Origin: Podarcis liolepis
Lineage: Eukaryota
Assembly (NCBI GenBank): GCA_965112155.1
Contig: OZ218100.1
Strand: one strand, 5' to 3'
Length of the DNA stretch: 64,000 nucleotides
How positions within the stretch are numbered: the stretch's first letter is position 1; each line of letters starts with the position of its first letter. Below, one piece after another: positions 21,596 to 58,708 of this stretch. The notes below the pieces were generated by a model. The model was not told the DNA's origin and did not search any database. It saw only the letters and a list, made by a program, of their open reading frames with translations. A program made the position numbers and the translations under genes.

Positions 21596-22311
21596 GCACA
21601 ACCTGTTTGATCAGAGACCACTGTACAATCGGAGGTGGGCGATGTTCAAGCAGTGACCTCTGCAGCAGCACCCCATATTCAATACTCTGGAGAGAAAGAA
21701 AGAAAAATTGACTTCAACTTGACATTGGAGATTTATGTTTGGATAATCTGGCATCTTTTTATTTGATGAAAAGCAGAAGTAGGGGGAAGGCAGAATTTTA
21801 AAATGGGCCATATGGTGGTTGGTAAAAAGGTTCATCCTAAAACATGCACCCCATGTCATTTCCCCACCTTATATTGCTCCTCCCCAAGCTGCTGTTAGTT
21901 GTAGAGGTGAAAAAGACGGTTCAACACAGTACAATCTGCACAATCCCACGCAAGTGCTACCTGTCCGTAGAAAACAAAAGCATATAAGAGAGAAATGTTC
22001 CAGGTGTGCCATCTCCCAGAGGAGCTACTTTTCTATGTGTAGGGAGTTGGGGTGGTGGGTTTTTTCTGTGTTTTTTTTTGGGGGGGGGGTTGCAATCTTC
22101 TCCCTTCTCCCTTGTGTTATATGAAAATTCAATCTTTTTTAAAGCTTTTGATGTCACATGCAATGCAATCCTTTAGATTTTACAAAAACCCAATTATATT
22201 TCAGCTTCTTGAAATTGAATTAAGCCAATACTGACAAGTATTTGCTTCTGTTTTCTGTACTGCTGACTTCACTGGCTGTATTTATTATTTGTCGTCGTCC
22301 CCCCCCTTTAG

Positions 22312-52420: not shown

Positions 52421-52516
52421 GGCATTCTTGGGTCAGGATTTGCGTTAAAAGTACAGGAACAGCATCGTCAGAAACATTTTGAAAAAAGAAGGAATCCCGC
52501 TGCCAGTTTAATTCAA
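52421..52516 (+). CDS. KCNQ5: KCNQ5 exon 7 (end of S6, start of helix A): [32 protein letters not shown]
   Basis: 96 nt, ctccag acceptor and gtaagt donor; ends in phase 0 at the IQ of the calmodulin-binding IQxxWR motif. Confidence 0.97.
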
Positions 52517-55500: not shown

Positions 55501-55888
55501 TTCCAAAAGTTTGGGAGACCCTCTGTAACATCATGGGAGGTGGGCTGGGGGCTGCAAGGGAATGGAGGCAAATCAAGTGAAAACTGCCCCCACCCCTTCC
55601 CCTCCTTCAGCGGGAAACCTTTGCTGGATTCCAGTTTCTCCACAAATGAAAGGAGCCCTTCCACTGAAATTGTGACTTTCTTGTGTACAGTTTTCTTGTG
55701 AATTTTAATACTTAACCAAATCTTCATTGCACTCTGCAAGCATAACCATACTGAACTAATTATTTAAGCCAAAGTAACAGGTATTGGTTCCAGCTTGAAC
55801 AAAATGCAGATTTTCCATAGCGATAACGATGCTTTCATTTCATATATTGTTGGCTCCTTTGTGCTTTCTATTGTTTCCTTTTCACAAG

Positions 55889-55977
55889 GCTGCTTGGCGG
55901 TTTTATGCTACTGATTGCAGACGAACAAACCTGACAGCCACTTGGCGATATTATGAAAGTATTCTTCCATCCCTTAG
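55889..55977 (+). CDS. KCNQ5: Candidate alternative exon 8a, KCNQ2/3/4-type: [29 protein letters not shown](R/S)
   Basis: 89 nt; pyrimidine tract plus AAG acceptor; AG|GCATGT (GC) donor; phase 0 to phase 2 like canonical exon 8; aligns without gaps to recalled KCNQ4 [30 protein letters not shown]. Confidence 0.85.
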
Positions 55978-56028
55978 GCATGTATCAGTGCTACAAATGA
56001 CACAAAAATGTCATGACTTGTATTGGTA

Positions 56029-56114
56029 TACTAATACGCTTTTCTTTTCTTTTTTGTTTCATCCCCTGCTCCCTCTTGCCTTTATTTCCCTTTCTTTATC
56101 ATATATTCTGCATG
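56029..56114 (+). promoter_or_regulatory. Distal branch point (TACTAAT), AG-free polypyrimidine tract and TGCATG (Rbfox) element between exons 8a and 8b
   Basis: TACTAAT at 56029-56035; no AG from there until the acceptor at 56116-56117; TGCATG at 56109-56114. Confidence 0.7.
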
Positions 56115-56117
56115 TAG

Positions 56118-56213
<96 letters not shown>

Positions 56214-57257
56214 TAGGTAAAAATTTGGCAGTTGGTGCTGTACTTGATGTCTGTTTTGAGCCTATAAAAATCAGCATGTGGTTTTGTCTTGTTGTCCCCC
56301 CCCCCTTAATACCATTTATTAAGGAACTTAGGCAGCAAACTGGGACAATTACACATCCTCCAAACATAATGACAAATCGGATTCCCATTTTCTTTTGTTT
56401 CTGAGCCATTATTACAACAAAGCAATAGAAGATTTTTTCCGCCACCAAGTCCTCAAAACCCTGCTGGAAGTTAATCTTCTAATAGCATCTAGGCAAAATA
56501 TTACCTGTGTTGGACTCAGTTAATGCTAATTCATCCTACTTCACATGGTTGGTGATATATTATTCCAATCTCTAGGGCACCACACTGGCTACCCCTGCAT
56601 TATTTATTGTCGATTTCTAGCAGCTTAGACCTGCTGACTTCCATTGGTTTCTCTCAATCTAATTGTGCTTAGAGTTAGAAGAAAAAGCAGGCGTATAAAC
56701 AGCATGTAGGTCAAAGGGCCACACTAATTTATACCAGCAGAGGTTTTGTCTTGTTACTATTCAGATTAGGAAAAGACTGAATGAAACCCAACCAACTGGG
56801 TAATTCACCACAAACAATTTGCTGCTTCTTTCAGTTTGCAGTACTGTGCTTTTTGCATAAAGCTGCTGTGTTTTTCTTTTTCTTTGTAATAAACAGAAGC
56901 TTAAATGTCACCATGTTATCCTTACTGTCAATTACATTCCACATGTTTCCTCTTCCTGTGAGAAACCTGTGTAGGAGGGTGTTAGTAATAAAACTGATAC
57001 GGCTGTTCTTCATTCCCATTAGATGGGTCATACTGATATGAATCCTGGGAAACATCTATTTTCAGTGGGAGAGAAATGCGTAGCTTTCTACTTCTATGTG
57101 TAATGGAAATGCAGATAACAATATCATTTCATCATATATGTTCCTTGTTAGATAATCATAGTTAACAAAGAAACAGTCCCTATTCATTTGAGGGAAGAAT
57201 TTGGTTGAGAGAAACATGCCTATTGCAGAAATTCCATATTAAAGAATAATCAAAATA

Positions 57258-57482
57258 CAGTGGTACCTCTGGTTGCGAACGGGATCTGTTCCGGAGGCCT
57301 GTTTGCAACCTGAAAAGGACGCAGCCCGCGTCTGCGCGGGTCGCGATTCGCCGCTTCTGCGCATGCACATGACATCGTTTTGTGCATCTGCGTGAGCGGC
57401 GAAACCCAGAAGTAACCCGTTCCTGTACTTCCGGGTCGCCGCAGTACGCAACCTGAAGCAAACGTAACATGAGGTATGACTG
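57258..57482. mobile_element. Tc1/mariner-type MITE, CpG-rich
   Basis: TA|CAGTGGTACCTC ... GAGGTATGACTG|TA. Confidence 0.85.
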
Positions 57483-58681
57483 TACTGTTTTTTAATTACA
57501 AACACACATGCAACAATATCAACTGGGCATCCTTCTAGGAATTATGACAACAAAATCATGCTTGTATTATCTACATAAGAAAGTGTTTTCCAGAGGAAAG
57601 TTCTAGAAGTTTGGAATGGATTTTAGCATGTTTTCATATGGCACAGCAATTCTTGTTATTTCTTTTGCTTTAAAAACTGTCACCAAACCATTTTGAGCTG
57701 TAAGAATAAGTGAAGATGGAAAACAAATAGATTCTGAACAAGAATCCTATACACTCCTAAACTCCTTACTCTCTCCTCTAGAGCTGAGACTTTGGTGTGT
57801 ACTACCTTTCTTACAGAAGGGAACTGAAAGTTATGTGGAGTTCTCAAGACCCATTTGTTGTGGCTAAACTATAATTGTTACTGCTATTTTACCTAACAAC
57901 AATAAAATATGGGGCAGACATACAACTGTTTAAAAAGACAAAGGGTGGCAGAGAGAGATTATGTTTAAGTCTAGTTTGTCTTCTCTTCCATTTTCCCCAC
58001 TTGGATGGGCACAGAAAGCTGATTTGTAAATTTCATCTAATTGGCAGGCACAAAGCTCATGATTGCTCCACTGGAACTCCTAAAAGCTTCAAAATAAAAA
58101 TATTTTGTTCTCAGAGGCCAGAAATGTTGGTTTTAATTGTGTTTTAGACAATCACTGTTTAGGCTTAAGAGTTAAGTAAGTTATGTAAACAGTTAAGTCA
58201 TAGTCTGACTAAATATATCACAGTGCACTTCTGGCCAACGAAAAATATTATCTGACATCAGTCCTCTGTGTGAAATCTCAGGTCCCAATTATTAAGTCAA
58301 ATGTGCTCCATTAAAACAGATATCTGCATCTAATAATAAGCCTACAGCTTTCTGTTATCTGTATATCAGCACCTGCATTTTGCCTAAATAAGTGCTTTGC
58401 CAACTCATTCAATAATGGTATGTTCTAAGCGCATTTAGCATGCCTTGAGGTGCTGTTCAAATATTTTTTCTGATGTCACGGTAGTTATATTAGACCCTGC
58501 TTGAATGTTTTGTGTTTGCTTTATAAAATGTTATTATTAAATGTATTAATTTGATTAACACAGCCAGCTGTGATATAGCATTTATCTTATAATGTTTGTA
58601 ACCACATCATAATCGGTACTGCCAGCATAACAAATTTCTTTCTTCCCCAAACTTTCTCTCTTCCGTTATTGACACCTGAAG

Positions 58682-58708
58682 GAAAGAACAAGGGGAAGCA
58701 TCTAGCAG
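58682..58708 (+). CDS. KCNQ5: KCNQ5 27-nt cassette microexon 9: KEQGEASS
   Basis: Pyrimidine tract, ctgaag acceptor and gtttgt donor; phase 2/2; matches human KKEQGEASSS. Confidence 0.9.

Follow-up and report, generated by a model that had tools for sequence, protein, structure and literature searches.

The 64-kb stretch of DNA analysed here (the window) carries on its + strand the middle part of KCNQ5, which encodes a potassium channel of nerve and muscle, and the exons for S2-S3, S4, S5, the pore and S6 were placed along it by translation. Following the exon that ends at the IQ of helix A there is a pair of neighbouring exons, for which we use the labels 8a and 8b; these are working labels taken over from an initial annotation of the same DNA. 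The members of the pair are evidently homologous, with lengths of 89 and 95 nt, identical phases and homologous peptides, and they are separated by an intron of 140 nt (55978-56117). The locations of the exons and of the features within this intron are listed in Table 1. Farther along, at 57257-57484, lies a GC-rich segment of about 230 nt with imperfect inverted ends and TA at its start and end, which resembles a Tc1/mariner-type miniature element.

Table 1. Exons, splice signals and computed structures at the KCNQ5 exon pair (positions in the window; the slash marks an exon end).
Feature	Position	Strand	Remarks
Upstream exon (end of S6 to IQ of helix A)	52421..52516	+	96 nt, phase 0 at end
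Exon 8a	55889..55977	+	89 nt, phase 0 to 2; KCNQ2/3/4-like copy
Non-canonical GC donor of 8a	55975..55983	+	AG/GCATGT; phase-2 joins in 45/57 KCNQ5-type proteins
Alternative GT at intron +5	55982..55983	+	Weak U1 pairing
Predicted two-stem hairpin filling the donor-branch spacer	55984..56025	+	Computed
Outer stem of this hairpin	55984-55991 with 56020-56025 and beyond	+	Computed
Inner stem of this hairpin	55997-56002 with 56009-56014	+	Computed
Competing predicted hairpin	56019..56038	+	Computed; would bury branch A
Predicted distal branch point, TACTAATAC	56029..56037	+	Branch A 56034, intron +57
Long polypyrimidine tract	56038..56108	+	Inside AG-free zone 55989-56115
RBFOX motif TGCATG	56109..56114	+	-9..-4 of 8b acceptor
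Exon 8b	56118..56212	+	95 nt, phase 0 to 2, GT donor
27-nt exon, in-frame partner of 8a downstream	58682..58708	+	

The segment encoded by 8a or 8b is the second half of helix A together with the TW site, in the calmodulin-binding region of the channel (PMC6359610). Among solved structures the peptide of 8a finds its matches in chains of KCNQ4, KCNQ3 and KCNQ2 (E 1.5e-7 to 5e-5), with only a weak match to the KCNQ5 chain 6b8q (E 0.28). In the KCNQ5 structures 9j38 and 9liz, 8b follows directly after the IQ, so that 8b is the version present in solved KCNQ5.

A search with the turtle 8a region as query returned 86 proteins, or 103 in all once cluster members were added, and 57 of the 103 are of KCNQ5 type as judged by their downstream signature. 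Among these 57 predicted proteins 45 contain 8a only, five contain both exons, six have odd continuations and one contains 8b only, a tally in which 8b-only forms are under-sampled because the query was 8a. In the 45, which come from birds, python, turtle, frogs, coelacanth, gar, teleosts and sharks, 8a is joined in phase 2 to the downstream exons without 8b. Exon 8a is thus already in public predicted proteins (e.g. XP_068271099.1, XP_031758146.1 and XP_061600553.1), and word-based searches for proteins that used the peptide of the window itself recovered only two and one proteins; the closest 8a peptide is that of a skink, with 27 of 30 residues identical to the window's, which makes a squamate reptile the probable source of the DNA. 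Cololabis saira has one annotated isoform with 8a and another with 8b. There is no mammalian KCNQ5 among the 86 matches, a search that is not exhaustive for mammals since mammalian KCNQ2, KCNQ3 and KCNQ4 are also missing from it. Taken from sequence and annotated models, 8a and 8b are likely to be used one at a time.

Two further observations concern the same protein models. Several teleost proteins named KCNQ4 or KCNQ4-like have the KCNQ5 downstream signature together with exon 8a and are likely misnamed, 8a resembling KCNQ4. Of the 45 models of 8a type, 28 include the 27-nt exon and 17 skip it; its acceptor is AAG, and its donor, GTTTGT, is weak.

Splice signals of the intron between 8a and 8b

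The donor of 8a is GC and not GT, a feature absent from the initial annotation. The phase-2 joins in proteins (R/KEQG and S/QKLSF) fix the end of 8a at AG, and the donor is therefore GC. All 14 KCNQ5 proteins that read through into the intron start with RHV, which forces AG/GCAYGT, and three KCNQ3-type read-throughs start with RQV after the 8a homologue, which forces AG/GCARGT. From these two kinds of start it is likely that the GC donor is older than the split of KCNQ3 and KCNQ5; 8a is likewise the probable ancestral copy of the pair. There is in addition a GT at intron position +5, which is kept in 14/14 of the KCNQ5 read-throughs beginning RHV and is used in three database models (RH/CVW, from skink, tinamou and snakehead), these being three of the five both-exon models among the 57. 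Its computed pairing with U1 is -1.3 kcal/mol, compared with -4.5 kcal/mol for the GC donor. The choice of donor bears on the earlier proposal that nonsense-mediated decay (NMD) provides a backup against double inclusion: this is borne out for the GC donor, from which an 8a-8b join meets an early stop inside 8b (codon 52, counted along the two exons once joined). The GT at +5 would escape such a backup, as it would join 8a and 8b in frame with no stop.

The signals on the acceptor side agree with the initial annotation. TACTAAT is present at 56029-56035 with its branch A at 56034, leaving 83 nt to the intron end, and the long pyrimidine tract with no AG that was described after it is 81% pyrimidine over 80 nt (90% over the first 40) and lies in an AG-free run of 127 nt. 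The element TACTAATAC has eight of nine letters the same as the U2-complementary branch sequence TACTAACAC quoted in PMC2991248. The pattern TACTAAYAC has a single occurrence on the + strand of the 64 kb, and TACTAAT is the sole yTRAy in the last 100 nt of the intron. The AG-free run is the second longest in the window, where two of 4358 AG-to-AG gaps are that long, and seven other acceptors checked in KCNQ5 have AG-free runs of 22-72 nt; the other four TACTAAY sites in the window are followed by sequence that is 45-55% pyrimidine. The elements of a distal branch point are accordingly all found in the sequence (a strong far motif, an adjoining tract and an extended AG-free zone), and their arrangement is more than chance. 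A proximal branch point as the main site was considered and rejected, the best A within 40 nt of the 8b acceptor having three of the seven letters of the 7-mer consensus, although weaker candidates at +20, +23, +29 and +39, with five or four of seven, may also be used. It is likely, to judge from these signals, that 8b splices through a distal branch point 57 nt past the 8a GC donor.

Elsewhere in the gene, the AG-free zone at the acceptor of the S2-S3 exon (22234-22311) is 71 nt long, and TACTGAC is found at -78 and TGCTGAC at -46 of this acceptor, motifs that may possibly represent a second distal branch point in KCNQ5. A second ACTAAT is located at 55755-55760, about 130 nt 5′ of the 8a acceptor and outside its 66-nt AG-free zone; the 8a acceptor is without a yTRAy motif in the last 100 nt.

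Several candidate regulatory motifs lie in the intron. The QKI motif is bipartite, and although ACTAAT is present and had been put forward as a QKI site, it is the branch sequence itself and there is no second UAAY half-site in the intron, for which reason QKI was rejected as a separate regulator. The tract, which had been suggested to bind PTBP, contains several TCTT/TTCT words. The RBFOX motif at the 8b acceptor was missed by the initial annotation, and is the best-conserved regulator motif: a site compatible with TGCATG or TGCACG, both of them primary RBFOX motifs (10.1101/840272), occurs in 10/10 of the read-throughs that reach the acceptor, against a background of 23/6588, and the 8b acceptor therefore has a conserved (U)GCAYG beside the exon. 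Positions +1 to +5 of the 8a donor also correspond to the RBFOX pentamer GCATG, with the GCAYG form found across read-throughs. RBFOX represses an exon when bound upstream of it and activates one when bound downstream (10.1101/840272), and one site in this intron would be expected to push splicing from 8b to 8a.

Spacing and predicted folding between donor and branch point

Cross-species conservation of the spacing, which had been suggested as a check, was examined through proteins that read into the intron. A HMMER query of 8a plus the in-frame intron returned 18 proteins, of which 14 were used and four lacking 8a coverage were left aside, and cluster members were added. Many of the read-throughs are ORFs called across the intron in genomic contigs, and their residues constrain the intron letters; the relatives are known from peptides only, and motifs are described as compatible and not as read from DNA. 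Fifteen read-throughs derive from other vertebrates, and 12 of these have exactly one TACTAAY-compatible place, the remaining three ending or splicing out too early for the branch motif. The compatible site is at +56 in eight ORFs, seven of them of bird type (one cluster) and one of fish type, at +58 in two cyprinid-type ORFs (six letters only, with the ORF end taken as a stop), and at +69 and +89 in two other fish-type ORFs, one each. Branch A is thus compatible with +56 to +58 in 10 of the 12 informative read-throughs, representing three lineages and including the cluster of seven, and the chance of TACTAAY compatibility is 0.19% per position or 0.9% per 5-nt band. The introns are 135-138 nt long in the bird-type ORFs and 182, 229 and 236 nt in fish-type ORFs.

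The check on spacing therefore has a mixed outcome at the level of peptides, since 10 read-throughs agree with the distance in the window but two fish-type ones do not. The distal branch point looks ancient, and its spacing appears to be often, though not always, near 57 nt. Two pattern scans of metagenome contigs for relatives' intron found nothing, one of them giving 589 pattern matches of which 0 were confirmed; the pattern of the first scan was checked on the window itself. Both the sequence and the conservation implied by the read-throughs give good support to reading these signals as a distal branch point for a pair of mutually exclusive exons.

The spacer also has a predicted structure. 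The region folds better than its shuffles (z -3.1, 0/200), with a fold that varies with the stretch taken, and the 64-mer from donor to branch site has a computed energy of -17.3 kcal/mol, with 2/274 windows of like GC content as stable. When donor and branch site are held open, the two-stem hairpin filling the spacer has an energy of -13.8 kcal/mol, and 4/1000 spacer shuffles are as stable. Its computed pair probability exceeds 0.9 as long as the transcript ends before 56060, and is 0.98-1.0 when the footprints of U1, U2 and the tract are held open, whereas for the complete intron with nothing bound the competing fold, which buries the branch A, prevails (0.8 vs 0.2 for the spacer hairpin). 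In the comparison with bird-type ORFs, six of 14 spacer codons differ, three of them in loops, two keeping a G-U pair and one breaking a pair; the number of broken pairs is not significant (P 0.24), and no compensatory two-sided stem changes are visible. None of the six differing codons is in the outer stem (P about 0.008), in a post hoc test on codons that also flank the donor and the branch site. A fold test by back-translation was without power, the window's own peptide failing it (84/150). The intron ends at 55978-55984 and 56109-56115, both with GCATG, are predicted to pair with a probability of about 0.8 in the intron alone, but not when the flanks are included.

What may prevent the joining of 8a to 8b

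The initial annotation proposed that this geometry discourages 8a-8b joining and that the spacing is near the upper limit for steric blocking. The distal branch point on which the proposal depends is supported; linear distance alone is doubtful as the cause. The steric threshold between donor and branch point is given as about 50 nt (PMC7969005), and a criterion of <50 bp has been used to recognise 57 such human clusters (9%) (PMC5740500), so that the linear 57 nt of KCNQ5 exceeds the published limit and falls outside the steric class as defined by distance (< about 50 nt). A linear steric block is unlikely to be the whole story, because 57 nt is above the limit and two fish read-throughs have their one compatible site at +69 and +89; a purely linear block is doubtful, and is more so at 69 or 89 nt. 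Only with the predicted hairpin in place would the path from donor to branch point shorten, by computation, to about 18 steps.

Plain linear exclusion in the style of alpha-tropomyosin exons 2/3, in which 57 nt would be too short for U1 and U2 together, has in its favour that branch point, tract and AG-free zone are laid out alike and that 56-58 nt recurs in three other lineages, and the weak GC donor may raise the limit. In alpha-tropomyosin itself, however, a distance of 42 nt reportedly blocks joining and one of 51-59 nt is said to relieve the block. The branch points mapped in OGDH, at 25-41 nt in human and 46 nt in sunfish where the limit is about 50 (PMC7969005), are similarly at odds with this explanation, as are the fish cases, and we consider it improbable. 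At the other extreme there may be no steric block at all, the distal branch point and tract being a landing pad for RBFOX, PTBP and U-binding proteins while the exons compete and NMD clears double inclusion. A distance above the limit and the two outlying fish read-throughs are what such competition would allow, the RBFOX motif is kept in 10/10 informative read-throughs where the spacing is kept in only 8/10 of them, and double inclusion through the GC donor meets an early stop. It fits less well with a spacing of 56-58 nt in three distant lineages whose introns range from 135 to at least 182 nt, or with a spacer that folds better than chance, and we regard it as a serious but unlikely alternative.

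Two other explanations have far less to recommend them. The strand at 56020-56026 could act as an RNA switch and so choose the exon: paired with the donor side it would leave the 8b branch point open, and paired with the branch sequence it would shut 8b. Both folds are predicted with this one strand common to them, and the branch-burying hairpin is matched in stability by 49/2000 shuffles, but having donor and branch site open together costs 0.2 kcal/mol, and the coupling is as great or greater in 742/1000 shuffles. The idea failed on this coupling test and is very improbable. It is yet harder to believe that the exons are not strictly exclusive and that the GT at +5 gives rise to a genuine isoform in which both of them are in frame. 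Its frame is stop-free, its GT is conserved and three models use it; on the other hand its U1 pairing is poor, it lies 4 nt closer to the branch point than the GC donor, and the GT doubles as +5/+6 of the GC donor consensus and is present in KCNQ3-type read-throughs too. The three models look, from their names, like homology or ab initio predictions that avoid the GC donor.

We favour, with confidence that is about evenly balanced, a lock in which several layers together, and not linear distance alone, prevent 8a-8b joining. The donor-branch spacing would lie at the edge of the steric limit, and the spacer hairpin, predicted to be the first to form during transcription, would trim the donor-branch path to its shortened length. 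The weak donor and the long branch-to-AG tract could keep both sites open to regulators. The conserved RBFOX motif at the acceptor would act against 8b and, from its place downstream of 8a, in favour of 8a; tract-binding proteins and RBFOX would set the direction of exon choice, and NMD would remove double-inclusion and double-skip messages. The hairpin could also have an effect of either sign, because in yeast stems that lie in the donor-branch spacer help splicing (PMC7404189). The expected outcome of this layered lock is two channels differing in the TW segment and in the latter half of the IQ helix that binds calmodulin.

A wider conjecture, which we put forward tentatively and think more probably wrong than right, is that jawed vertebrates other than mammals alternate in KCNQ5 between two calmodulin-binding IQ/TW modules, one ancestral (KCNQ4-like) and one derived; the GC donor would be ancient, a co-transcriptional hairpin would bring a branch point that is just too distant within the steric limit of this donor, the RBFOX motifs at the two ends of the intron would set the tissue direction, and mammals would have kept the derived exon only. 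If this is correct, KCNQ5 would be a vertebrate case of steric exclusion made by structure.

Relationship to known mutually exclusive exons

No paper on the KCNQ5 exon pair or its intron was found in the open-licence literature; subscription journals and bioRxiv supplements may contain one. KCNQ5 is absent from the supplements of PMC5740500 (10 files), where the human KCNQ-family exon pair on record is in KCNQ2 at another position, and KCNQ is absent from the supplement of PMC7969005 (one file). Neither the pair nor the intron is described in the accessible portions of PMC8209339 or 10.1101/2025.09.21.677649. The architecture class and the presence of 8a in public predicted proteins are known, and the KCNQ5 pair would join the mutually exclusive exons with distal branch points.

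The pair swaps the segment that follows the IQ residues of helix A together with the TW site, and on the helix A IQ and TW elements depend, at least in part, the binding of calmodulin by Kv7 channels, their trafficking and their control by calcium (PMC6359610). Studies of the M-current in models from among fish, frogs, reptiles and birds may therefore be dealing with a KCNQ5 that differs from the form in the solved structures. With its spacing just above the accepted steric limit, this compact intron also provides a test, set up by nature, of whether steric exclusion in vertebrates can arise from the folding of RNA, and of the true position of the limit.

The exons 2/3 of alpha-tropomyosin and the NM/SM exons of alpha-actinin are both said to have a distal branch point with an adjacent tract near the upstream donor. 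KCNQ5 has the same layout as alpha-tropomyosin, although its 57 nt falls within the range of 51-59 nt that reportedly relieves the block and not at the 42 nt that reportedly imposes it. In Drosophila Dscam 17.1/17.2 (Yue et al. 2013), as related in PMC7969005, steric hindrance is combined with RNA structure and a distal branch point; Dscam 17 is an insect gene tested by experiment, whereas the structure in KCNQ5 is computed only. OGDH exons 4a/4b (PMC7969005) share with KCNQ5 a tandem pair, a size-restricted intron, a distal branch point by the upstream donor, a long pyrimidine tract, an AG-free zone, conservation across vertebrates, exon lengths that are not a multiple of three and a protein segment linked to calcium. 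The OGDH branch points, unlike that of KCNQ5, are mapped, form a cluster and lie below the limit (PMC7969005), whereas the KCNQ5 site, at 57 nt, is single and predicted, and the intron has a GC donor as well as an RBFOX motif at its acceptor. The KCNQ5 pair would work like the tropomyosin and OGDH class, but is not filed there because the class is defined by a distance that its intron exceeds.
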